A stretch of 64,000 nt of DNA from an uncultured Verrucomicrobiae bacterium (GTDB lineage: Bacteria > Verrucomicrobiota > Verrucomicrobiia > Opitutales > JABDGR01). The number at the start of each line of letters is the position of its first letter. Within the stretch, counting starts at the first letter, position 1. Under the pieces are notes generated by a model. It saw only the letters and a list, made by a program, of their open reading frames with translations, did not search any database and had not been told where the DNA came from. Made by a program: the position numbers and the translations under genes. The stretch covers positions 32,001 to 96,000 of the forward strand of contig CAVXVB010000005.1 of NCBI GenBank assembly GCA_963765205.1, in the 5' to 3' direction. Positions 10,543 through 26,411 of this stretch are shown piece by piece.

Positions 10543-12121
10543 GGCAATGTTGCCCAAATCCGGTCAACGGTGGCTTCAATCCGCAATGATGGCATGTAAG
10601 ATGCTGTATTGTAGGACATCATGATGGGAATAAACGATCCGCAGAAGCAACTGTTCAACTACAACGTGGATTTAGACCGTCGGGTGCGGCGGGACAATCC
10701 ACTGCGAGCAATCCGGGAGAAGATCGACTTTGCCTGGGTGCGCGACGAGGTGGCGCACTGCTACGGCTACAATGGGAACGAATCGGTGGACCCGGTCGTG
10801 ATTCTCAAGCTCCTATTTCTGCTTTTCTTCGATGCGGTGAAGAGTGAACGGGAGCTCATGCGCATTGTGCCGGAGCGGCTCGATTATCTATGGTTCCTGG
10901 GCTACGGTCTGGATGACGAGATTCCCGATCATAGCGTCTTGTCCAAGGCGCGGGCGCGCTGGGGCCGCGTGGTGTTCGAGCGACTGTTTGTCCGCACGGT
11001 TTCCCAGTGTGTGGCGCTGGGTCTGGTTGACGGCAAGAAGATCCACATGGACAGCAGCATGGTGGATGCGAACGCTGCGTATGAGTCCTTTGTGGTAACG
11101 TCGCCCGAGTTGGTCAACGCCCTGCGGGCCGCTTACGCGGTCGAGGAGTCCAAGTTTGAAATTGACGAGGAACGCCAATCCCGCCTGCCGAAAAACCGGA
11201 CCAGTTTTTGCCAGACCGATCCAGACGCCACCATTGCCGCCAAGGAGCGGTGCGGCGGCTATTCTGTCGCCAAACCGCGCTACAAAAGCCATCGGGTGGT
11301 GGATGACCAATGCGGCGTCATCACCGCCGTCGAGACCACGCCGGGACACATCTATGATGGGGCCTGCCTGGTGGCGCTGACCGAGCAGCATCACCTCACC
11401 ACCGGCATCGGCGCGCAGACGGTCGTGGCTGACCAGCATTATGGCACCCGCGAAAACATCCGGGCATTACAAGCGCAGGGCATCCGTACCCACATGAAGG
11501 TGATTCGCAACACTGGCCTGACGGACAAGAAAGGCATCTTTCACGCCAGTGACTTCAAGTATGAGCCAGCGACCGACACCTACCGATGTCCCGCCCAACA
11601 AACGCTAACGCGCCGCAGTTACGACCGGTTTCAGCGCGGCTGGCTCTTTCGGCCAGACGCGAGTGTGTGTCGCGCCTGTCCCATCCGGAACCAATGCACC
11701 ACGGCGCGATTGGATGCCCCAACCGGTCGCGTCATCGTTCACCCGGACGGCTACGAACTGGTGGTCAAAGGATGTGCGCAGGCCAACAGTCCCGAAGCCA
11801 AGCGCGACCGACGGCGGCGCATGACGCTGATTGAGGGCAGCTTTGGGCAGGCTTCACAAAACCATCACTTCAAACGCGCCCGCTGGCGGCGACTCTGGCG
11901 CCAGCGCATCCAAGATCACCTCATCGCCGCCGTGCAAAACGTCAAAAAGATACTCCGGCACGGGCCGGAGAACGGCAAATCGACCACAACCAACCCATAC
12001 CCGGCAAGTTCGCCACTTTTTTCGCCGCAGTCACTAACCCTGATCGGTTGGTTTAACAAAATCTTTGCCACACTCTCGCCCGGCTGGAACTGAGTCCGCA
12101 AATCATTCGGGCAACATTGCC
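10543..12121 (+). mobile_element. Complete IS1182-family element
   Basis: Terminal IRs GGCAATGTTGCCCAAAT (10543) and ATTCGGGCAACATTGCC (ends 12121), 16/17 match; 4-bp target duplication AGAA on both sides. Confidence 0.92.
10621..12093 (+). CDS. IS1182-family transposase
   Basis: SVDPV, SERELM, PDHSVLS, MDSS, TDPDA, VADQHY, CPA and C..CP...C Zn motifs, IEGSFG. Confidence 0.92.
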   Translation: MMGINDPQKQLFNYNVDLDRRVRRDNPLRAIREKIDFAWVRDEVAHCYGYNGNESVDPVVILKLLFLLFFDAVKSERELMRIVPERLDYLWFLGYGLDDEIPDHSVLSKARARWGRVVFERLFVRTVSQCVALGLVDGKKIHMDSSMVDANAAYESFVVTSPELVNALRAAYAVEESKFEIDEERQSRLPKNRTSFCQTDPDATIAAKERCGGYSVAKPRYKSHRVVDDQCGVITAVETTPGHIYDGACLVALTEQHHLTTGIGAQTVVADQHYGTRENIRALQAQGIRTHMKVIRNTGLTDKKGIFHASDFKYEPATDTYRCPAQQTLTRRSYDRFQRGWLFRPDASVCRACPIRNQCTTARLDAPTGRVIVHPDGYELVVKGCAQANSPEAKRDRRRRMTLIEGSFGQASQNHHFKRARWRRLWRQRIQDHLIAAVQNVKKILRHGPENGKSTTTNPYPASSPLFSPQSLTLIGWFNKIFATLSPGWN

Positions 12122-12196: not shown

Positions 12197-13531
12197 TTAA
12201 CAATCAACTAAGTCCGCGTTATTGAACGACTTAGCTTCGCGGGGGAAATTAAGTTCGAGTCCCTGTTCTCCCACCACTTTCAAAATCGGACAGTCTTGGA
12301 CAACGAGGGACGGCAGTGGATAAACTGCCTCACTTTCAACGGGTTGCGAACCAGATGTTAAGTTTTGAGATTTTTTAGGATGGACATCGATTTCCTTCAA
12401 AACCCCCTTTTGACCACTTTTTAGTGGCTCAGGAAGTGAAACTGGCGCAAGGTTGGGGGTGCCAGCTTTGACGAGGTTTGCCAGCGTTTCGATGCCCTCC
12501 CGCAAGGGGAGTTGGGTGGCGTCGGTGTAGGTCACATCCGTCATCCGCAAGCTTTTGTGCCGGGCGAGTTGCATGATCACGCGGGAGTGAACGCCACGCT
12601 TTTGCAGGTGGCTGATGAAAGTCCGGCGAAAAGTATGAAATCCGGCAGCGCGCCCAAGGTCATCTTGATGCTGAATGCCCGCTTTGGCGAAGTCGCGATG
12701 CAGCGTTTCCATATTAGGCGCACCCTTCCAGAACACCCGAGTTTCGGGCTTGGCGAAGACCGGGCGAGCCGCACGAAACTCCGGCACCAGGTCTTTCAGG
12801 ATGGGAAGCCAGTCGGCCCGGCGGCTCTTGGTTGCCTCGGGGCGCAGGAACAGGCCCGGATTGTCGCCGTCCAGGCGGACATCGGCCCAAATCAAACGGC
12901 TGGCCTCTTTGTGGCGCAGGCCCGTTAAGGCCAAGAGACGATAGAAAAACCGACGGCGAGGCGCAGCCGCGTAGAGCCGGCTTAGCTCATCCTCAGTAAA
13001 TGCGCGGGGACCATCGGAGGACGGCTGCGGCACGCGCAGCTTTTGGAGGTGTTTGAGCGGGTTGGGGGTTTGATAGGTGCGTTCAGCCCAATTGAGAAAG
13101 ACGCGCATGGCGTCGAGGAAATGGTTTTGATAGCGAACGCTGAACCCGTGGTTCGAATTTCGCCAGTCGAGGAGGCTTTTTGGGGTTATATCGCTCAATG
13201 TCTTCCAGCGGCAGTATTTTACGATCTGCGGGAAGCGAAGCCGGAGATTGTTTAAGTAATCCACCGAAACCTCGGATTTGCGTTTCTCCTTCATGAATTC
13301 TTCAAACAATTCCAGGAGAGGCCGCTTCATGGCCGAACGAGTTACCTTGCCTGGGATCAGCCCGGCGTCTTCCTTCTGGGCGTCCTCGTAGGCTTCATTA
13401 AGGCGCTTTTCCGCGACCTCCTTGACGGTGGTATACAGCGCAACCTCGTGGATTTTGGGATTGTCGCCGACGCGGAAGCGGCCGCGGTATTCCCGGCGTT
13501 TGCCCTTTGGTTTGAGTAGAAATTTAAGCAT
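12197..13531 (-). CDS. Tyrosine recombinase/integrase
   Basis: Catalytic pattern TGLR..E, TKSR, HTFRR, ARH, Y; the C-terminus reads through the att core. Confidence 0.9.
   Translation of the reverse strand: MLKFLLKPKGKRREYRGRFRVGDNPKIHEVALYTTVKEVAEKRLNEAYEDAQKEDAGLIPGKVTRSAMKRPLLELFEEFMKEKRKSEVSVDYLNNLRLRFPQIVKYCRWKTLSDITPKSLLDWRNSNHGFSVRYQNHFLDAMRVFLNWAERTYQTPNPLKHLQKLRVPQPSSDGPRAFTEDELSRLYAAAPRRRFFYRLLALTGLRHKEASRLIWADVRLDGDNPGLFLRPEATKSRRADWLPILKDLVPEFRAARPVFAKPETRVFWKGAPNMETLHRDFAKAGIQHQDDLGRAAGFHTFRRTFISHLQKRGVHSRVIMQLARHKSLRMTDVTYTDATQLPLREGIETLANLVKAGTPNLAPVSLPEPLKSGQKGVLKEIDVHPKKSQNLTSGSQPVESEAVYPLPSLVVQDCPILKVVGEQGLELNFPREAKSFNNADLVDC
12253..12280 (+). repeat. Attachment core, tRNA 3'-end duplicate
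   Basis: GTTCGAGTCCCTGTTCTCCCACCACTTT contains a T-loop and CCA end; near-identical copy at 21731. Confidence 0.8.
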
Positions 13532-13739
13532 AAGATTCACCTTTGCCTTTGGCGATTTGACGTTGGATGTATTTATGCACTTCCGAGGGCAGAACATGGC
13601 GGCCAGCCCCAATTTTGAAGCTGGGCAAATGGCCCTGGCTGATCAGGCGGCGAACCGTTTTGACGCTTTTACGCAGCAGTTTCGCCACCTCTGCTAGAGT
13701 AAGCGGCGGCTCAAAGTTGGTGGGAAGGGGAGTGTTCAT
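13524..13739 (-). CDS. Excisionase-like HTH DNA-binding protein
   Basis: LTLAEVAKLL..SVKTVRRLI..G.LPSFKIG; directly upstream of the integrase. Confidence 0.85.
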   Translation of the reverse strand: MNTPLPTNFEPPLTLAEVAKLLRKSVKTVRRLISQGHLPSFKIGAGRHVLPSEVHKYIQRQIAKGKGESYA

Positions 13740-14143
13740 GGTTTGGCTTTGTCTTTTTTGCTTTTGGCTTTCTTGGGGAGAGTGGGCGGTAATTCGAAAT
13801 CAACCGGCACAGCGTTTGGCTCAAGGAAGGTTGTCTCCGCCATCTCATGCTCATCCTTTGCATCTTGCATATTTTCTTCTTCCTCGTGCGCATCATCTAC
13901 GCCAAGCGCGACAGGATCGGCCGTCAAAATGTACACCACCTGACTGCGATTTACTTCAATTCCCAGGGTTTCCGTAGCCCATAGGGCGATTTCACGAAAC
14001 GAGTATCCTTTGTCGCGCATTTTTTGTAATGCGCCTTGGTAGTTACGCAGGTTGATCTTCGGCGGCATGTCTGCCGCGATTTCAAAAGCTTCGTCTGGCG
14101 AAGGCGGCCTCGCATCGCTTTCTTGTTCTTGTTCATTATTCAT
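13736..14143 (-). CDS. Hypothetical protein (possible HTH)
   Basis: MRDKGYSFREIA motif; coupled to xis by an ATGA overlap. Confidence 0.6.
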   Translation of the reverse strand: MNNEQEQESDARPPSPDEAFEIAADMPPKINLRNYQGALQKMRDKGYSFREIALWATETLGIEVNRSQVVYILTADPVALGVDDAHEEEENMQDAKDEHEMAETTFLEPNAVPVDFELPPTLPKKAKSKKDKAKP

Positions 14144-14543
14144 CGTTTTTATACGATATTAAACAGTCCAGTCGCTTGCAAGCATAAATTTCATCTTTTT
14201 TACGCTCGGCCCGGTTGCCGGGTGGACCGCGAGCTCGCGGGGCGGCTACGTTCCACCCGGCAACCCTGCCTCGCTATAGCCCGCCTGACGCAGACCGTGC
14301 ATTATATCGCAAATTGCCCTGGGCGACATAACGCACGGACTGCGCTTAACCGGCGGCTAAAACACTTTCCCTTGCCTTTGTGGCTGTGTTCCGTTGGCCT
14401 GATGACAGCCAATCTGTCCCTTGCCGCCTGCGGATTGCCGGTGCTTCGAGGAAATTGACGAGAGTGGATTCCTGGCCCCACGCGCGCTTCTTTGTGAATA
14501 ACTTCCGCTTGATTCATTAGATGCCCATTTGTTCACTTATAGA

Positions 14544-16108
14544 ATGGGGGCCAGTTATCGCGCCAGACGACCGCGGGCTTCGCCTTGGTGGCAATGCCTC
14601 CACGCCTGCCTTGGTGATTTTCTGGCTAACTATCCCACACACTACGAAAAGGCCTCTGGCCCCTTGCGCCCGGTTGTGGCGACCAGTCTGCGCGCTTTTC
14701 TGCGCTGCGGCGACCTCGCCCAAGGCTTTGCCCGCATCCGCTGTGCGGATTGCGCCCACGAATACCTGCTCCCTTCACCTGCAAGAAACGCGGCGCCTGC
14801 CCGTCCTGCCACCAACGGCGCAGCGTGGACGCCGCCCACGTCATCGCCGGCGAAATCTGCGCGCCCGTGCCGCACCGGCAGATCGTCCTGACCGTGCCCC
14901 GCGCCTTGCGCTGGCCCTTCCGGCGCCATCGTGAACACCTCGCCCTGCTCTTCGCCGCCGCGCACGAATCCCTCCTGCTCTGGTTGCGCGAACGCACCGG
15001 CCAGCCCGCCGGCCAAATCGCCACCATCGCCGGCCTCCACACCTTTGGCGATTACCTGGTCTTTCATCCCCACCTGCACATTCTCGCCGCCAACGGGGTG
15101 TTCGACGAATCCGGCGCCTTTCACCTCGCCCCCAGCGGAGGGGGAGCCGACCTCGCCGAACTCTTTCGCCATGCCATCCTGCGCCGGTTCGTGGACGCCG
15201 GCGTCATCGAAGCCTGGCAGGCGCACCGCTTCCTCTCCTGGCGGCACAGCGGTTTTCAAGTGGATGTCGGTGAAGCCCCCCTCGCCGCGGACGATGCCGC
15301 TGGCCGCCAACGCCTGGCCGAATACCTCCTGCGCGCTCCGCTCGCGCTGGACAAGATGCACTGGAACCCCGCCACCCGCTCCGTCCTCTACCGCTCCGCG
15401 CGCAGTTGGCATACCAAGCGCAACTATGAAATCTTCTCCGGGGCCGACTTCGTCGCCGCCCTCGCCGAACACATCCCCGAAAAATCCAACCAACTGATCC
15501 GTTACTATGGCCGCTACAGCAACAAATGCCGGGGCCGCGAGGCGAAGGCCACCGCCGCGCGCGCTCCCTGGGCTGGGGAACGGCCCGCGGCGGTCATTCC
15601 GCCAGCGCCCATCCGCCCCCGCCGACGCACGTGGCGCGCGCTCCTTATCCGCGTGTGGGGAACCGACCCGCTCCGCTGTCCCTGTTGCGGCGGCCAGATG
15701 CAAAATATTGGCCTCATCAAAAAACCCACGGCCATCCGCGATTGGCTCACCCGCCTCGGTCTCTGGGAAGGCATCAGCGCCATCCCTCCCGCCCACGCCC
15801 CGCCGCTGCCCGTCAAAACCATCCTCTGGGGCGTGGACACCTGGGACAGCCGCATCGTGGAATTTGAACCCGGCATGGAAATGGTTGGCCTGCCCGACCG
15901 CCACCGCCAGCACAAATCCCCCGGCGAGCGCTACCGCACCTACCCCCGCGAAGAATGGGACGAGCCGAGTCTGGAAACACACGAGGCCGACGAAAGCCAG
16001 GAGCAACCCTGGCAACCTCCGGCCCAACCGCGTGAAGGCGGCCTGCTCCTCATCTTTGATGGCGACCCGCCGCCCTCGGACGACCTCCCTGTCTTCTGGA
16101 CCGATTAG
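14544..16108 (+). pseudogene. IS91-family (Y2 HUH) transposase, frameshifted
   Basis: LRCGDLAQGFARIRCADC then FTCKKRGACPSC in another frame (one base missing near 14772); HRQIVLTVP, LHTFG...HPHLH, WRHSGF, YLLR, RYYGRYSN, DPLRCPCC. Confidence 0.85.
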
Positions 16109-16312
16109 TCGAACCCCGGGTTGCGCCCAAAATCGTCGTCTCAACCCTGAGACGGAGGCGGAGCCAGGCTTGCCCACGGACAAATACCCTTGCCACCCGC
16201 TCACCAACTGCCCATTTTGCGAGCCATGAAGCGGCCATGCATGAAACGACGCTGCTGCAATCTTCATCCCGCTTTATTTGGGGGACTTAACGGGGCCTAT
16301 CCGTCCTCCCCC

Positions 16313-16418
16313 TTAACCCCCTCCCCCAAACCCAATCAACCCCAAAAGAGCAAATTCCTTTCAGTTTAACCCCCTCCCCCAAACCCAATCAACCCCAAAA
16401 GAGCAAATTCCTTTCAGT
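16313..16418 (+). repeat. Two tandem copies of a 53-bp repeat (candidate IS91 ori end)
   Basis: TTAACCCCCTCCCCCAAACCCAATCAACCCCAAAAGAGCAAATTCCTTTCAGT at 16313 and 16366. Confidence 0.95.
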
Positions 16419-16549
16419 AATCAAGGTACTTTGGATGCAAACTGGGCCGGCCCGGATGACGCTGGAGATATTGATAGTGGTGCTTGTTAATATATGCTTT
16501 TTAAAAAAGAGTAAATGAATCCTTCGAATACCGATCTTTAAATCTGACC

Positions 16550-16876
16550 ATGGGCCCCACTTTTGCTTTTCTTGCCTTCCTGAACACCATGTCGCCATTC
16601 GTCGGCTCGATCTGGTGGGGCGCGAAAACAGGAGGGGTTCATGGCGCCTTGATCGGTTTGATTGTTGGATTGGGAATTGGTATAAGTAATTTTTTTGGGA
16701 TTAGAGCGATATACAAGATCTGGTGGCGTTGGTATTCGCGTTGCAGAGAAAAAAACGATTCGATGTATTGGCCTGAGAATGTAGGAAGGCTTTTGTTTAT
16801 TGGGTTATTTTTCTGGACGTTTGTATCCGGTCTTTTTGGACTGTTAATTACAACATTAGTGATTAACGCAGTTTGA
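16550..16876 (+). CDS. Small membrane protein
   Basis: Three hydrophobic segments, AT-rich codons. Confidence 0.55.
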   Translation: MGPTFAFLAFLNTMSPFVGSIWWGAKTGGVHGALIGLIVGLGIGISNFFGIRAIYKIWWRWYSRCREKNDSMYWPENVGRLLFIGLFFWTFVSGLFGLLITTLVINAV

Positions 16877-17363
16877 AATGAACCCACGCGCCAACCATAA
16901 CTGGGACAACTACATCCAGAAGTCTAGCGGGAGCACGATGCTGGACCAGGACCGGGAGTCGTCGGTGTTCAACCAGTTGGTGGCGGTGTACAACACGGGG
17001 ACGCCGATAGACGTGGATTACGACGCGGGGGGGCACCTGATCCTCGCGCCGGCGGGCGGGAACTGGAGCACGCTTTTGGGCCTCATCTACGACGCGTAAA
17101 TGAACCCACGCGCCAACCATGGCAGCGGAAGTGCCCCGTGCCACTTTCCAAGATCCGTGCCATTATTTTGCGTCACTGGGTCTAGCTTCTCGGTCGTGAA
17201 CCCATTCTTTTTTCAAATGCGAAGTGGACCTACGTCTGACTCAACACCCCAACGGCTTGCCCTCCTCGGACCGCTTGTCCCGGTGAACCACCCGCATACC
17301 CGGCGGCCTCTTTCATCCGCCGTGGCCCGGTCGAAATTGGTAGGGATGCGACTGCCCAAGCTA

Positions 17364-17416
17364 TTAACCCCCTCCCCCAAACCCAATCAACCCCAAAAGA
17401 GCAAATTCCTTTCAGT
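17364..17416 (+). repeat. 53-bp repeat, copy 3
   Basis: Identical to 16313-16365. Confidence 0.95.
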
Positions 17417-17533
17417 TGACAAAGCGATTCCAGTGGACCCGAGACAGGCCGTTGACGGTTTCGCCGTCAAAGCCATCAATGTCGAGACCCGCCTGATAAC
17501 ATCGGTCACTGTAAGCCGCAGCCTCCGCTTCGC

Positions 17534-17586
17534 TTAACCCCCTCCCCCAAACCCAATCAACCCCAAAAGAGCAAATTCCTTTCAGT
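17534..17586 (+). repeat. 53-bp repeat, copy 4
   Basis: Identical to 16313-16365. Confidence 0.95.
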
Positions 17587-17635
17587 ACCCGGATTCAGGA
17601 AAAATCCACCAGGAGAAACCAGTGAATGGCAATGG

Positions 17636-17664
17636 TTGACCAGCCGGGGCGGACATGCTAGGGT
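17636..17664 (+). promoter_or_regulatory. Putative sigma70 promoter of hicB
   Basis: TTGACC-17 bp-TAGGGT with extended TG, 6 bp before the ATG. Confidence 0.45.
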
Positions 17665-17670
17665 ATCCGC

Positions 17671-17910
17671 ATGGACAAACGATACGCATACACCATTGAA
17701 TTGCATCCCGCCGAGGAGGGCGGTTACGTCGTGACTGTCCCGGCCTTGCCAGGCTGCCACACCCAGGGCGACACCTATGATGAAGCCCTTACGCACGCCG
17801 AGGAAGCCATCCAGGGTTTCATCGAGTTCCTTCAAAAGACCGGACGCCCTGTGCCGGTTGAAAACGAGCATCCATCCAAACTTCGCCTTGGAGTCAAGGT
17901 GGCCGCTTGA
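17671..17910 (+). CDS. hicB: HicB-family antitoxin
   Basis: EEGGYVVTVPALPGCHTQGDTYDEAL..AEEAI. Confidence 0.88.
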   Translation: MDKRYAYTIELHPAEEGGYVVTVPALPGCHTQGDTYDEALTHAEEAIQGFIEFLQKTGRPVPVENEHPSKLRLGVKVAA

Positions 17911-18124
17911 ATATTCAATAAACCCTCTTGTATTATCGGGAGTACCGCCGTATAAGGCGGATGAATTTATCGAAAGCCTTCGACCCCATGCCCGCAAGCA
18001 CTTAAATGCCAGCAGCTTATCGCTTCATAATCTTGGCAAGAAAGGCTTTCGGGCCCCTTTGGTTGGTAAGCATTTCGGATTCTAGCACTATTTTCTTTAG
18101 TAATTGAATTTGGCTGAATGCTTT

Positions 18125-18949
18125 ATGATATCTCGCATACTTTTGGGCATTTCTCTTGTCGCAGCGTTTGTCGTTGTGATTTGGTTAATTTGTAAGTTGC
18201 CATCTTCGGAACCCGTTAGAATCACCTCGATTGTCGCGGTTCCTCCCACCGTGTCACAGCCTAGCAACAACGCGTTTGCGATACCAATGCACCTTGTGTC
18301 CTCGATCGCACCGTCATCTGCTGCCGGTCCCAATAACGCGGTTTTATCGGCAGCCAGCCAGAAACCGATGACGGAACCCACTGTACCGATTCGATTTGCG
18401 GAGGGGCCGGCAGACGGCTCGGAACGAGTCATAGCCGCTGCGAAGGGAAGTGCTTGGATGCCTGTGAAAATCCCAACTGACAATTTGGTAGCCCGGCCTC
18501 CGCTTGCCTACTATCGCATGCAAACTAGATACGACGACTTGGAGGCTTTAACCCCGATGGGGTATTTCTATTTTGTCGAAAGTAATGGTAAGGTTGTCGC
18601 TATCGCCCGGATTAATAATGCCAGCGGGAGTGTATCGCCGTTTGGGGCAGCCAATGTAGATGAAATTCAATGGGCTAAAATAATTGACCAACTGGCAACG
18701 TTCGACCAGGTCAAAGGCGGCTCGTACGAAGTGCGCCTCCTGGCCATACCTACCCCAAATGTGTATTATCGCCAAACCTTCAACGTGCTCTGGCTTAAAT
18801 CCGATCCGGGCGGCACCGATCTCATTTACCAACTCCCCAACAGCGGTCTTTTGAGTTCACCCTACGGCGAGAAGCCGGGCACATTCTACAAGGCCGACGA
18901 TTTTCTAAAAATGATTCGACCTGCAACTGAACAGTTAGACAAAACTTAA
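18125..18949 (+). CDS. Exported/membrane-anchored hypothetical protein (paralog 1)
   Basis: N-terminal TM, Pro/Ser linker; shares PIRFA, GSYE.RLL, WLKSDPGG.DLIY with the next gene. Confidence 0.75.
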   Translation: MISRILLGISLVAAFVVVIWLICKLPSSEPVRITSIVAVPPTVSQPSNNAFAIPMHLVSSIAPSSAAGPNNAVLSAASQKPMTEPTVPIRFAEGPADGSERVIAAAKGSAWMPVKIPTDNLVARPPLAYYRMQTRYDDLEALTPMGYFYFVESNGKVVAIARINNASGSVSPFGAANVDEIQWAKIIDQLATFDQVKGGSYEVRLLAIPTPNVYYRQTFNVLWLKSDPGGTDLIYQLPNSGLLSSPYGEKPGTFYKADDFLKMIRPATEQLDKT

Positions 18950-18971
18950 ATGGATTAATCGAATTTCCACC

Positions 18972-19874
18972 ATGAAATTGCGCATTATTTTGGCTGTTAT
19001 TCTCATTGCCAGCATTGCTAGCGGCGTGGTTTGGTGGCTGGAGCAGTCCCCGGCTGCAGAACCCGAAAAAATAGCCGTCACTCTGAATTCCACCCTTGCG
19101 GCGTCAACGGGTAACTCTACGACCGTGATGCCCGCGCTCAAAGTAGTTGCGCCGGCCACTAGCGAGAATGTATCCTTGCCCGTCCCGTCGGGGATCAAGC
19201 GAGTAGTGATTGCGCCACCACCCATAATGGCCATTATGCCACCCGCAAATATAACCAGCATGCCAGCCAATAGTTTGGAAACGAACGCCACACGCACTGG
19301 ACCGATTCGATTTGCCGTTGCCCCCGTTAACGGCTCGGCGCTAGTCCTCAAGCGCTTGGCTTCAATGGGCACCGAGCCTCGGTACGCTGACCAACTGGGT
19401 GATCCGGCCAAACTGAAGTTGCTACCCCCGCTAGCCACCTATTATTTGCAGTTGAACTTGCTCGACCAAGGTGGCACCTTGGAGAGTGCAGCGCTATTGG
19501 AGGGATTTAATTATGTAGTCCTGTCCTCTGAGCAGGCATTTGCGAATGTAACCGTGGTTGCAAATAATTCTGGCAAAGCACAGAGCCTACGTATGTTGGC
19601 TACCGGCGCTAATATTGGGGACGTACCAAACGCCCTCGATCAACTGCGAATCCTCGACCAACTTCAGTCCGGGTCCTATGAAGCGCGACTCTTAAGTTCG
19701 CCGGGACTCTTCAGGGCGATCTGGCTCAAGTCCGACCCCGGCGGCTCCGATCTGATTTATATTGTCGCGCCCGCACCGCCGCTGGAAGCGGGGAAGTTGT
19801 ATACGGTAGAAGAATTTGTAAAAACTATCCTGATGATGTATCATGATCGTCAAAACCAGAACGGATTCGGTTGA
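18972..19874 (+). CDS. Exported/membrane-anchored hypothetical protein (paralog 2)
   Basis: Same architecture and shared C-terminal motifs as 18125-18949. Confidence 0.75.
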   Translation: MKLRIILAVILIASIASGVVWWLEQSPAAEPEKIAVTLNSTLAASTGNSTTVMPALKVVAPATSENVSLPVPSGIKRVVIAPPPIMAIMPPANITSMPANSLETNATRTGPIRFAVAPVNGSALVLKRLASMGTEPRYADQLGDPAKLKLLPPLATYYLQLNLLDQGGTLESAALLEGFNYVVLSSEQAFANVTVVANNSGKAQSLRMLATGANIGDVPNALDQLRILDQLQSGSYEARLLSSPGLFRAIWLKSDPGGSDLIYIVAPAPPLEAGKLYTVEEFVKTILMMYHDRQNQNGFG

Positions 19875-19972
19875 GCAGGACACCGTCAAACGTGACAATT
19901 CGCCTTCCCGGTGGAACGGATTTCCCTTTGCGCATTGCAGGGGCGCTGGTTCGCGGGTAGGGTGGGGTGCTT

Positions 19973-20311
19973 ATGGCTTTGCTTAGTCTGCTCGATCTCG
20001 ACCTCTCGTTTGGCGGTCCGCTCATCCTGGACAAGGTCAACCTGCAGGCGGACCCCGGCGAGCGCGTGTGCCTCGTGGGGCGCAACGGCGCGGGCAAATC
20101 CACCTTGATGCGCGTCATCGCCGGCGAATTGGCCGCCGACTCCGGCTCGGTGTTCCGGCCCGACGGCTCCGTCGCCACCCGGCTGACCCAGGAGATTCCG
20201 ACCGACGTGCGCGGCACGGTCCACGACATCGTGGCGGCGGGCCTGCGCGACCCCGGCGGGCATGAGGAGGATTGGGAAAAGGACGTGCGCCTCGAAGACT
20301 TGCTCGCGCGC
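19973..20311 (+). pseudogene. 5' fragment of an ABC-F (Uup-like) ATPase truncated by the 53-bp repeat
   Basis: LSFGGPLILD, GERVCLVGRNGAGKSTL, then similarity stops at repeat copy 5. Confidence 0.8.
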
Positions 20312-20364
20312 TTAACCCCCTCCCCCAAACCCAATCAACCCCAAAAGAGCAAATTCCTTTCAGT
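20312..20364 (+). repeat. 53-bp repeat, copy 5
   Basis: Identical to 16313-16365. Confidence 0.95.
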
Positions 20365-21382
20365 AGTTAGTCCGCGCGCGTCTGACCCCATGCAGAAGTT
20401 CCCCAATGACAAAGCGATTCCAGTGGACCCGAGACAGGCCGTTGACGGTTTCGCCGTCAAAGCCATCAATGTCGAGACCCGCCTGATAACATCGGTCACT
20501 GTAAGCCGCAGCCTCCGCTTCGCTTTCAAAAATCAGGTAAGCACAGTCTTTCGGTGGCACCAGCCGGGGGGCGTAATCTATCATTTTTTTTCCCCACCTT
20601 CGCCCGAAAATTTCACGCATTCCTTCTTTGAAATTTGAGGTGATGCCAAGGGCGTTCGCCATCATGGCTTTTTGAATCTTGAACATCCGCGCGCCAGGAC
20701 TCTCCCACCGGAATGGCAGCATTTTCGCACGCGGGAATTTCCGGCCATAGTTGTAGCAGCGTGGCCGTCTCTGCTTGCCAACGGGAGGATCCTTCATTTG
20801 GGCTTTAGAAATGTAGTTCGAGATGTAGCCAGCCAGGTTGCCCGCCTTCCCGGGTCGGACAGGTTCAGCGAGCCAGCGACCAAGTCCACGGTATCGTCTC
20901 CCTGGCTTTTTTTTGCTGCACCAGGGTTTACGAACCGCTCGTTTCAGCGCATCGTGAACCTTCCTCATCGGTGTCCCACGAGGAACCGCCAAGTCGTAGA
21001 GCTTTTCCGCCTCACGATCAGGATGCCAGCGCAGCCGCTGCATCCGTTTTTTGTAGGCTTCCCAAGCGGCCCAGTTGAAACCCTCATTGAAGTCAATTCC
21101 ACGGGTGCTAAGGCCCACGCAATGGTCATGAACCCGGCCGTTTTGCTCGCCTTCTTCACGTGCACGGAAATAGCTCGTCAGGCCCATTTCTCCAAACAGG
21201 CCTGTCCTTACCCGGTTGAACACCTTGGACGCTTCCTCGTGGGTGGGAGGCCTGGTGGCACCGCCTTCCTGGACATCCAAGTAAGTGAAGGTGGCCACCA
21301 AGGCGGACCGGAAGAGGTTCACGGCCGTTTCGATGTTCTCGATGTTGGCTGCCCTGGACTTTACCTGGTAAGTCGAGCTCAC
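20360..21382 (-). CDS. Putative rolling-circle replication initiator (HUH endonuclease)
   Basis: FTY motif 1, E...NGRVHDH motif 2, YISNYISK motif 3; stop codon supplied by the repeat. Confidence 0.65.
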   Translation of the reverse strand: MSSTYQVKSRAANIENIETAVNLFRSALVATFTYLDVQEGGATRPPTHEEASKVFNRVRTGLFGEMGLTSYFRAREEGEQNGRVHDHCVGLSTRGIDFNEGFNWAAWEAYKKRMQRLRWHPDREAEKLYDLAVPRGTPMRKVHDALKRAVRKPWCSKKKPGRRYRGLGRWLAEPVRPGKAGNLAGYISNYISKAQMKDPPVGKQRRPRCYNYGRKFPRAKMLPFRWESPGARMFKIQKAMMANALGITSNFKEGMREIFGRRWGKKMIDYAPRLVPPKDCAYLIFESEAEAAAYSDRCYQAGLDIDGFDGETVNGLSRVHWNRFVIGELLHGVRRARTNY

Positions 21383-21444
21383 AATGCCCTCCCTCTTCCA
21401 CCCTGAGAACCGCTCGTTTGAGTTATGACTATTCTTACAAGGAA

Positions 21445-21499
21445 GGCCGTCGTCGGGCCGGGGGACGCGCGTAGCGCGTCCCCCGGCCCGACGACGGCC
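21445..21499. repeat. Perfect 26-bp inverted repeat, candidate double-strand origin
   Basis: GGCCGTCGTCGGGCCGGGGGACGCGC-GTA-GCGCGTCCCCCGGCCCGACGACGGCC upstream of the Rep gene. Confidence 0.7.
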
Positions 21500-21730
21500 A
21501 TTCCCGACGCCGCAATGAGTTCATTGCTCATGGCTTGCCTCCTTTCGCGGCTTGAACGAGTGCCAGGATGGCCGCGCGGACTTTCTCGGACAAGTTTGCC
21601 CAAGCTAAGACAACGTCCGACAGGTCTTCCCCAGGCTGGACAGAATTGAGTGGCCGAGGAAGTGAAACGCCTTTTTCTGCGACGGGCTTAACTGTCGCGC
21701 TTGGATTTGCTTCTAAAATCTTAGCTGAGG

Positions 21731-21757
21731 GTTCGAGTCCTGTTCCCCCACCACTTT
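21731..21757 (+). repeat. Attachment core, tRNA 3'-end duplicate (second copy)
   Basis: GTTCGAGTCCTGTTCCCCCACCACTTT; one indel and one mismatch versus 12253. Confidence 0.78.
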
Positions 21758-21826
21758 ACTCTCTGATAGTTAGAGGGTTAAGTTTTCCGCGAAGCTAAGT
21801 TGCCCAGTTGACGTGGCAACTCTAGC

Positions 21827-23011
21827 ATGAAACAGTCAACATTCGCGCTGACGCGATTTGAAAATCAGAGCGGTCTCCTCTCCTGGCGGGTGGAGGGAAG
21901 GCTGCATGGAATCCGCATTCGCAAGAACTTCCAAAGCCGCGAGGAGGCCGCCGCCGAAAAGGCCGCGTTGGAATTGAAATCCATGCAGGCCGCTTCGGGC
22001 CTGCGCATGACCACCACGTTTCTTACTGATGGGCAGTTGCGCGAGGCTGAGGCAGCCTACCAGCGTCTAATCGGCCAGCCGCGATCCCTGGCCTGCTACC
22101 TCGACTATGCGCTGACGAATTATCGCGCCCCGGAGTTGGAAGTGTCGCTGCCCGATGCGGCGGCTGAATACGTCGCCGCCAAGTGGGCAGAGTGCAAGCG
22201 GGGGCTGGTATCTGACCTCCAATGCCGTGCAATCAAGTGGGAATTGGAGAATCTCAAGAAGTGGTTCCCGGCGCACACAATGGCGAAATTCACGGCCGCT
22301 GCGCTGGTGCCTTACCTTGAACGGAATTCGCCGTGCCTGAAAACTTACAACAATCGGCGCGGGGTCCTCTCGACCTTCTTTAAGTTCGCCTTTCGGAAGG
22401 ATTGGGTTTTGACCAATCCAGTCGAAAAGACTCCGCACCATCGCATCAATCATCGGCGCGGTTCGGCGGTCACGATTACGGCGGAACAGGCGGGCAAGCT
22501 CATGGCTCATGTCGAAAGCATCAACGGCGGCGCGATGGTGCCGTATTTCGCGCTCTGCCTCTTTGCGGGCATCCGCCCCAATGTGAAGTTTGGAGAAATC
22601 AAGAAACTCCGGCCTGAGCATGTTCGTCTCGACACGGGCGTTATCCATATCGAGCCGGAAGTTTCCAAGGTGCGGATGAAACGGCATGTCACGATTCAAC
22701 CCAATCTTGCGATGTGGCTGCGGGCATATCCGCTGGAGAAGTTCCCCATCGTTCCAAAGAACATGACGAAAATGCGGGGTCGGGTTTTCGATGCATTCGG
22801 CCTGACGCATGATGTTCTGCGGCACACGTTTATTTCGATGTTCGTGGCAAAATTCCGTTCGATGGGCGAAGCCGCCCTGCAAGCGGGCAATTCGGAGAGC
22901 ATCATCCGCAAGCACTATCTCGACTTGAAAAACCCGTCTGAGGCGGAACGGTTTTTCAACATCGTGCCGCAGAGCGGCGAAAAGACGATTGCCTTCCCCA
23001 TTGCGGTTTAG
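21827..23011 (+). CDS. Tyrosine recombinase/integrase
   Basis: FAGIRP, SKVR, HDVLRH, GNS, KHY; 70 bp from the att core. Confidence 0.9.
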   Translation: MKQSTFALTRFENQSGLLSWRVEGRLHGIRIRKNFQSREEAAAEKAALELKSMQAASGLRMTTTFLTDGQLREAEAAYQRLIGQPRSLACYLDYALTNYRAPELEVSLPDAAAEYVAAKWAECKRGLVSDLQCRAIKWELENLKKWFPAHTMAKFTAAALVPYLERNSPCLKTYNNRRGVLSTFFKFAFRKDWVLTNPVEKTPHHRINHRRGSAVTITAEQAGKLMAHVESINGGAMVPYFALCLFAGIRPNVKFGEIKKLRPEHVRLDTGVIHIEPEVSKVRMKRHVTIQPNLAMWLRAYPLEKFPIVPKNMTKMRGRVFDAFGLTHDVLRHTFISMFVAKFRSMGEAALQAGNSESIIRKHYLDLKNPSEAERFFNIVPQSGEKTIAFPIAV

Positions 23012-25289: not shown

Positions 25290-26411
25290 CTAATGCGCCT
25301 CGCCCAGGTGTTTCAATTCGCGGTTCATCGCCGTCTTCAATTCGGTCTCGGTCGGCAAATGCAATTGGTAACGGCTCGTGAAAATCTTATTCTTCTGCTC
25401 GGGGCCAAGGGTGTATTTAACGACCGCATCGTTCTTGTCCGTGCACAGCACCAGCCCGAGGGTTGGGTTGTCGCCTGCCGTGCGAACCTCGCGGTCGAAG
25501 TAGTTTACATAAAGCTGGAGCTGGCCCAGATTTTCATGGGTGAGCTTTGCCACTTTCAAGTCCACCACCACATAGCACTTCAAAATTGTATGGTAGAAAA
25601 CGAGGTCAATATAGAAGTGGTCGCCATCGAGAGTGATGCGCTTCTGACGGGCAACAAAGGCAAATCCTTTGCCAAGTTCCAAAAGGAACGTTTGAAGGTT
25701 ATTGATGAGCGCCGTTTCAAGGTTGGCCTCAACGAGGCGCGGCGATTCCGGCAAGCCGAGGAATTCAATTACCATCGGGTCTTTGAAGAGATCCGCTGGC
25801 TGTTGGATTTCCTGGCCCTTAGTAGCGAGTTCAAGCACCCCGGCCTTGTCCTTGCTCTTTGACACCCGCTCAAACAGCAAACTGGCTATCTGTCGCTCAA
25901 GTTCACGGGCTGACCATGCGTTGGTCACGGCTTCTATTTCGTAGAAATTCCGTGTATTCACCGATTCGACCCGGAGTAACACCCGATATAGCGACCAAGA
26001 CAAAGAGGGGTGCCATTGGCCGGGTCGCCAAGATTGGTTACACACTGTGTAACCGATCTCAGTTTCGGTCGTTGCGGGCAGAGCATGGGCCGATTGGTTA
26101 CACAGTGTGTGACCAATCTGGCCTAACTGGAAACGCGGGTAATTGAGGTAGAATTGGCGGAAGAGTTTCAAATTGGTCGTGCTATAGCCTTGCGCAAACT
26201 CCTTCTGGAGCCGGACGGACAAGTCGGCTATGACTTTGTCGCCGTAGTTCGTTCCGTGAGCGCCCTTTTGCTCTTCCTCGACGATTTGTTGACCGATGAG
26301 CCAATTGGCCGCCACTTGGGCGGAATTGACCGACCGGGCAACCCCGGCCTGTGCTGATGCCAGGATGCGCCGGACTCGTTCAAAGATGGGGGAATGCTTG
26401 GTAGTGTTCAT
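25290..26411 (-). CDS. DUF1016/YhcG PD-(D/E)XK nuclease family protein
   Basis: NW.IG..IVEEEQ, LSWS.Y, WSARELERQI, KDP...EFL, LELGKGFAFV.RQ, IDLVFY, DLK, GQLQLYV. Confidence 0.9.
   Translation of the reverse strand: MNTTKHSPIFERVRRILASAQAGVARSVNSAQVAANWLIGQQIVEEEQKGAHGTNYGDKVIADLSVRLQKEFAQGYSTTNLKLFRQFYLNYPRFQLGQIGHTLCNQSAHALPATTETEIGYTVCNQSWRPGQWHPSLSWSLYRVLLRVESVNTRNFYEIEAVTNAWSARELERQIASLLFERVSKSKDKAGVLELATKGQEIQQPADLFKDPMVIEFLGLPESPRLVEANLETALINNLQTFLLELGKGFAFVARQKRITLDGDHFYIDLVFYHTILKCYVVVDLKVAKLTHENLGQLQLYVNYFDREVRTAGDNPTLGLVLCTDKNDAVVKYTLGPEQKNKIFTSRYQLHLPTETELKTAMNRELKHLGEAH

Follow-up and report, generated by a model that had tools for sequence, protein, structure and literature searches.

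An ISCR-like transposase followed by a one-sided array of end copies and inserted DNA in an uncultured Verrucomicrobiae bacterium

We analysed a 64,000-nucleotide stretch of a contig from an uncultured Verrucomicrobiae bacterium (the window; genome G000), in which a HUH transposase resembling those of insertion sequence common region (ISCR) elements is followed by an array of identical repeats and unrelated inserts. The transposase gene (14544..16108, plus strand, as are all array features below) encodes a zinc domain, an HPHLH motif and a single-tyrosine EYLLRAP helix, and carries a frameshift near 14770. It is preceded by a left remnant of the element (14411..14543), which comprises the transposase leader and the end codons of an upstream gene that is PIN-like by our reading of its translation; homology of the window to other copies of the element (G000:C9, L064, L065) ends at 14411. 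Downstream, a C-run tract just inside the repeat border (16290..16312), which occurs before parent copies only, leads into five direct repeats of 53 bp that are 100% identical and lie where the original prediction had placed them: repeat 1, the origin end of the element itself (16313..16365), repeat 2, a full-length tandem re-copy without an insert (16366..16418), and repeats 3 (17364..17416), 4 (17534..17586) and 5 (20312..20364). The spacing between consecutive repeats thus gives inserts of 0, 945, 117 and 2725 bp.

Insert 2 (16419..17363) holds a 108-amino-acid hydrophobic open reading frame (ORF; 16550-16876), a 73-amino-acid ORF flanked by a pair of 23-bp repeats, and a copy of a dispersed 270-bp element that is truncated a few bases short of its end. 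Insert 3 (17417..17533) is an exact duplicate of 20407-20523, which starts 42 bp past repeat 5 inside a neighbouring rep gene. Insert 4 is composite: its left part (17587..19880) encodes HicB (17671-17910) and a pair of exported paralogs (18104-18949 and 18972-19874), and its right part (19881..20311) covers a Uup-like ABC-F gene from its upstream region to codon 113. These final 431 bp showed 98.4% identity to the start of an intact gene at G000:C10:29950-29520; because five of the six coding differences sit at third codon positions, the donor of this piece may have been a sister strain. Intact donors of two inserts (insert 3 and the ABC-F part of insert 4) persist in the genome, and neither carries the repeat. 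The hicB gene, the exported paralogs, the cut ABC-F start and the rep fragment had all been recognized in the original prediction; its description of the inserts as cassettes did not hold, and the window inserts are arbitrary chunks cut mid-gene. At the insert-repeat joint, the three known donors have 1, 3 and 1 bases in common with the element, too few for significance. A replication-strand bias was also considered and dropped, as the GC skew was too noisy. The 23-bp motif of insert 2 (16876-16898) occurs nine times in G000 (at least 19 of 23 matches); it starts the dispersed 270-bp element (17096-17363), which is also found in same-genus genomes, and forms pairs 220-370 bp apart that flank short ORFs. 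It has no match in Rfam and may belong to a small cassette system in its own right. The Rfam scan of the region gave just three miRNA matches, at chance level.

As all five repeats are identical, contigs mis-joined through the repeated 53-mer could in principle have produced such a layout. The array is spanned by no single read, the order of the inserts is taken solely from the assembly, and one contig of short-read run X2 passes from ABC-F and its repeat straight into the sequence of insert 3 with 42 bp missing, which is either a genuine variant or a chimera of the assembly graph. Contigs of runs X1 (possibly the source sample of the assembly) and X2 nevertheless span the junctions of transposase and repeat, exported gene and ABC-F, and ABC-F and repeat; those of repeat and insert 3 and of repeat and insert 4 were reached with 30 and 29 letters on the short side, against a bridging rule of 31. 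Together with the recurrence of the layout in 18 distinct independent loci, and of terminal re-copies of the repeat end in complete plasmid records, this makes an assembly artefact very improbable. A 53-nt contig whose borders are exactly those of the repeat was found in run X5, which is unrelated, at a depth of 41, compared with 9.8 for the transposase end.

The protein upstream of the repeats matched Zn_Tnp_IS91 (PF14319) and Y2_Tnp (PF04986) in Pfam. The original prediction had called it a Y2 HUH transposase; the HUH assignment stands, through the Y2_Tnp domain, but the second tyrosine does not, as the catalytic helix has only one. The same was observed in 74 of 75 clade proteins in an alignment that left out the IS91 protein itself, the remaining one having no motif match; a separate RYYG motif is also present in clade transposases. 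L064, a metagenome protein 98% identical to the window transposase, is a single open frame of 530 residues and scored 155.9 bits against NF033538 (cut-off 125), compared with 124.5 bits for the partial frame of the window. The frameshift is present in run X1 and absent from L064 and from one X4 contig; the window copy is therefore either dead or served in trans by the second, open-frame transposase of the genome (G000:C9:231046-229413). This second copy has one end and, as in L065, an antitoxin and PIN-like gene pair upstream; C9 and L065 have a further 975 bp of upstream DNA in common, whereas the window copy is cut at 14411. The clade is distinct from ISCR: it formed its own branch with a support of 99 (quick tree, midpoint root), has about 24% protein identity to ISCR1, and scored 123.5 bits against NF052416, the model of the named ISCR clade (cut-off 925). 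A broad protein search, made without genomic context, returned 393 clusters at E<=1e-30.

The 53-bp repeat is the origin end of this transposase. Diverged copies lie behind the second transposase on C9 and behind transposase remnants on C1 and C4, and the aligned ends are asymmetric, with a left C-run block, a variable spacer and a right AAAAAGCAATTTCCT-NN-CAGT block that resembles the ISCR1 end and the end of a Trichlorobacter plasmid element. The final tetranucleotide is constant within loci. In G000, nhmmer found 38 matches at E<=0.05 (33 diverged ones beyond the five), and none in the reversed-genome control. Four C-runs were present in 35 of 38 parent ends, compared with 6.5 in shuffles; a G-quadruplex acting as stop signal was considered, and it is a lead only, as repeated protein-binding sites would explain the C-runs equally well. 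No stable or shared hairpin was detected in the end among six clade folds (z from -1.67 to +1.83), a weak test, since the ISPps1 and Trichlorobacter ends were also no better than shuffles. The original prediction had weighed the possibility of a genome-wide dispersed miniature inverted-repeat transposable element (MITE). Dispersal was indeed found, in the form of a diverged family, but not clean MITE-like insertions: among 92 copies, the flanks continued across a repeat in none of the seven testable cases, the eighth being a self-match of the repeat.

To place the window array among its relatives, we fetched 129 loci (49 genomic and 80 metagenomic). The end motif was found in 48; most of the other 81 end shortly after the gene. 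Two or more end copies were present in 20 of the 27 motif loci with at least 2 kb downstream, in 13 of 15 with 5 kb and in 10 of 11 with 9 kb, so that the downstream end does recur around variable inserts in relatives of the transposase, as had been predicted. Two of the 20 multi-copy loci duplicate others, which leaves the 18 independent loci mentioned above, and three share one genome; the named hosts are Verrucomicrobiota. The arrays are polar: 39 of 40 extra end copies lie downstream on the same strand, from an examination of 215,684 bases upstream and 187,299 downstream. The version of the end is particular to each locus, 53-81 nt long (53 here, 68-81 in relatives), its left border shifts by 1-3 nt, and the arrays contain up to eight end copies around inserts of 0-5.5 kb. 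The proposal that DNA accumulates on the origin side with the end regenerated each time is thus supported, at a near-fixed length. Comparisons between closely related loci gave the same picture. L018 and L134 have 9,105 bp of upstream DNA in common at 98.3% and downstream only end copies; in L096, L097, L098 and L100 all available upstream DNA is common (2.2-6.3 kb, 99.6-100%), followed by four different downstream starts. L096 and L098 were considered as a before-and-after pair, a weak case with a common flank of only 80 nt, partly re-copied end. Genome G061 has about 44 end copies, mostly in same-strand clusters, and G003 of the same genus also has arrays. Insert-plus-end units are duplicated in tandem in L213 and L215. 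An age polarity along the arrays was considered and dropped: of the 11 with at least three copies, four show divergence that rises distally and five show no trend; the picture in L134 is mixed, and all of L262 is unlike its parent. Ends of other variants lie inside the L134 array (17847-17922 and 19635-19710), one of them identical to the end of L018, and at L261:6807-7007 an origin end stands head-to-head with an inverted end of another variant. The cargo of 21 arrays (77 ORFs scanned) included fragments of genes for ribonucleotide reductase, SMC, DnaJ and recombinases as well as whole enzymes and IS elements; at L121:14901-15998 it is a whole nitric oxide synthase gene.

The junctions behind the ends carry a second signature. 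Exact suffixes of the end, 1 to 76 nt long, open 30 of 79 distinct junctions (control mean 2.4, maximum 7), and 23 of 41 in G061 (control mean 1.6, maximum 6), six junctions being common to both sets. These stutters measure 1, 3, 4 (the commonest length), 5, 6, 8, 12-22, 31-44, 53, 69, 76 and 81 nt, and include the final tetranucleotide. In the window, repeats 1 and 2 represent the full-length case, and repeat 5 is followed by AGT-T-AGT (20365..20371), that is, re-copies of 3, 1 and 3 bases of the repeat end. Because the junctions open with re-copies of the end's own suffixes, the outer edge of CAGT is the probable nick site; when the junctions were parsed with the nick before the tetranucleotide, none began with a suffix, and such suffixes cannot come from that position, which is the IS91 geometry (PMC13181058; here and below, papers are cited for the parts of their text available to us). 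Moreover, the 1- and 3-nt suffixes, together with CCAA rather than CAGT preceding the cut in the insert 3 donor, exclude the IS91 target geometry. No homology is needed for the suffixes if the extended 3' end of the flank rejoins the enzyme-bound 5' end. On the other side of the inserts, the base preceding the repeat in G061 was T in 13 and C in 11 of 24 cases and never a purine, which hints at enzyme-made joints there too, although the C is possibly element-derived; a strict target tetranucleotide at left junctions was considered and is not general.

Taking the anatomy, polarity, stutters, donors and variability together, we read the repeat as the origin end of an ISCR-like rolling-circle transposon and propose that the enzyme reuses its own nick there as a joining site, re-copying the end and closing it around foreign DNA, a reading whose chances we judge to be about even. 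The transposase would nick the bottom strand at the outer edge of CAGT and remain bound to the 5' end of the element, and the free 3' end of the flank would be extended into the element. In most cases synthesis would halt early, with a few bases copied, or else on reaching the C-run border, which lies at 53 nt in this array and at 68-81 nt in relatives. Attack of the new 3' end on the enzyme-DNA bond would then give a stutter or a tandem repeat. Alternatively, the new 3' end would first be joined to a foreign single strand, whose own 3' end would close the nick and so leave an end-insert-end arrangement; this joining may rely on 1-3 shared bases, or on a second enzyme molecule that cuts at a site chosen with little stringency. 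On this view a full-length repeat would be a stutter whose synthesis ran on to the C-run border, and an insert would arise when a foreign strand is spliced in during the same reaction; existing insert-plus-end units could be duplicated or moved likewise.

Several observations weigh against this proposal. The internal joint of insert 4 (19880/19881) has no repeat, and stepwise pick-up elsewhere therefore fits better than one capture. Inserts of the relatives L036, L023 and L006 had no close donors in their own genomes, and most cargo is therefore foreign or has moved as units. Fourteen of the 81 loci without the end motif have at least 2 kb downstream; a single end copy, which the original prediction had named as an outcome unfavourable to it, was found in 7 of the 27 loci discussed above. 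Metagenome contigs can mis-join through repeats, and the junction preference of G061 is weak or ambiguous elsewhere (first foreign base A in 13, T in 12, G in 6 and C in 1 of 32). Finally, the order of events in the capture step is indistinguishable by sequence from that of a model in which miniature origin elements come first. Here, rolling would stop at the C-run border and release a 53-nt mini-element that inserts elsewhere, one-ended rolling would then proceed into adjacent DNA because the border context is missing there, and the resulting insert-plus-end unit would land preferentially at an existing origin nick. Such a model uses the same enzyme and gives the same products in another order; it accounts for the composite insert 4 and for foreign end variants inside arrays such as L134, and is in line with the transposition of IS801 origin fragments of 229, 360 and 679 nt (PMC3189936) and with the dispersed diverged matches (33 in G000, about 44 copies in G061). 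It fits poorly with the absence of clean insertions at the seven testable junctions, though selection would hide such intermediates, with the lack of a repeat in the donors of two window inserts, and with a left border that is defined by C-runs and varies by 1-3 nt, where IS801 fragments begin at an element-derived tetranucleotide. We consider it rather unlikely. It is also conceivable that no special chemistry is involved and that decayed ends merely provide 53-80 bp of homology for circle integration or RecA recombination. Most IS801 fragments have been argued to arise by rearrangement (PMC3189936), recombination has been invoked for IS91/ISCR1 tandem regions (PMC5737581, PMC13023784), and a longer end duplication of 462 bp occurs in Trichlorobacter. 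Recombination of this kind leaves the near-fixed left border, the terminal stutters of 1-48 nt, the one-sided polarity and the formation of the first insert-plus-end unit unexplained, and we regard it as improbable.

A single-tyrosine catalytic helix is a defining trait of ISCR, and reuse of the origin nick, as proposed here, is best compared with ISCR1. Both have HUH transposases with one catalytic-helix tyrosine (RYISRP in ISCR1, EYLLRAP in the clade) and similar ends (...TTCCTATACCC in ISCR1, ...TTCCTTTCAGT in the clade), the last four bases being invariant. Textbook rolling-circle read-through does not reach the side behind the origin end. The original prediction regarded downstream capture as unlike known IS91/ISCR elements, which was not supported: the variable, gene-rich side of ISCR1 is the oriIS side, with constant DNA upstream and variable DNA directly after the invariant origin end (PMC6218425, PMC13393415), a gene lies behind that end in 84% of 1,127 ISCR1 records (PMC13393415), and IS801 origin fragments transpose. 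We fetched 12 ISCR1 plasmid regions, of which 11 had a visible end and together gave 10 distinct junctions; suffix starts were seen at 2 of these 10, a small sample. Re-copies of 6 and 28 nt separate the ISCR1 end from blaPER-1 at L217:5503-5547, and one of 5 nt separates it from msr(E) at L216:5503-5518; a complete Trichlorobacter plasmid has a 22-nt suffix at its end junction. In contrast, a second, distant end copy was found in none of the 11 ISCR1 loci (1.2-3.4 kb fetched), whereas the clade closes every insert with a short end of fixed length. No short end repeats were detected in 23 kb of pADP-1, where ISPps1 stands beside amidohydrolase genes.

Strict IS91 elements share a HUH transposase with a zinc domain with the clade but need two tyrosines (YxxxY, Y249/Y253; PMC5714925), where the clade has one; the clade end also lacks subterminal palindromes in the fold tests, a weak criterion as noted. 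In the one-ended transposition of IS801/IS91, short pieces that contain the origin are mobile although they encode no transposase, and can take adjacent DNA with them (PMC3189936, PMC13181058). However, IS91-type ends adjoin a target tetranucleotide that the recipient DNA supplies, and their fragments start at one, whereas the clade copies the tetranucleotide with the end and its pieces pile up behind the parent end. Two sequential origin ends enclose armA in the ISCR28 'sandwich' (Yuan 2024 as cited in PMC12772301), and pAME76 has two 45-bp IS91 end fragments (PMC9676059); both are single cases, and the available descriptions mention no fixed border, arrays or stutters. Precedents are thus known for origin fragments that move, for genes behind ISCR1 and for sandwiches between two ends. 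Neither terminal stutters nor end arrays of fixed length were described in the main text consulted from the IS91/IS801/ISCR literature, although supplements may describe end fragments. With integrons and CRISPR the array has in common a fixed platform and repeats that separate acquired DNA on one side. It differs in its HUH enzyme, which would take the place of IntI or Cas1, in lacking an attC-like hairpin, and in inserts cut mid-gene rather than whole-gene cassettes; its inserts of 0-5.5 kb are no uniform short spacers, and no Cas family was found among 20 nearby ORFs. A MITE, with terminal inverted repeats, a target duplication and clean insertion, is likewise unlike the clade repeat, which has asymmetric ends and no clean insertion at the testable flanks. 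Across the clade, the system works like ISCR and does not conform to strict IS91, integrons, CRISPR or MITEs.

The host of the window array is an integrative element (12197-14410 and 20360-23011) that carries genes for two tyrosine recombinases, an excisionase-like protein and a rolling-circle Rep, together with a perfect 26-bp hairpin at 21445-21499. The rep gene (20360..21382, minus strand), the donor of insert 3, has its last residues replaced at repeat 5; homologous Reps extend about seven residues past its end, and the left flank offers no clear supply of them. No relative of the rep element that could serve as an empty site was found among viral contigs. The end of L066 and a solo copy on G000:C2 also adjoin such rep elements, hinting at a preference for neighbours that produce single strands. 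The tyrosine recombinases that flank the window array, scanned in Pfam, go with the rep element; none of them is shared by the upstream ORFs scanned in relatives. Further out, a DUF772-type DDE transposase lies to the left of the integrative element (10621-12093), and a YhcG/DUF1016 gene holds a 39-nt inverted repeat and a 28-nt direct repeat at 26020-26130.

The arrays are a readable record of the reaction at the origin end, namely of the nick site, the extent of copying and what is joined, and their junctions give a precise, testable account of origin-side capture. If the proposed reaction is correct, it would explain how the clinical element ISCR1 gains resistance genes on its origin side, and it would amount to an activity that joins single strands with little regard to sequence, and to a way for Verrucomicrobiota to gain genes. 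More tentatively, and with somewhat less than even confidence, we suggest that ISCR-type enzymes may be sedentary capture platforms, whose main activity is end joining and which extend arrays in one direction from their own origin nick by sampling any single-stranded DNA, with blaPER-1, msr(E) and other genes placed behind ISCR1 by the same reaction. Such a platform would join integrons and CRISPR as a third means of assembling acquired DNA into ordered arrays.

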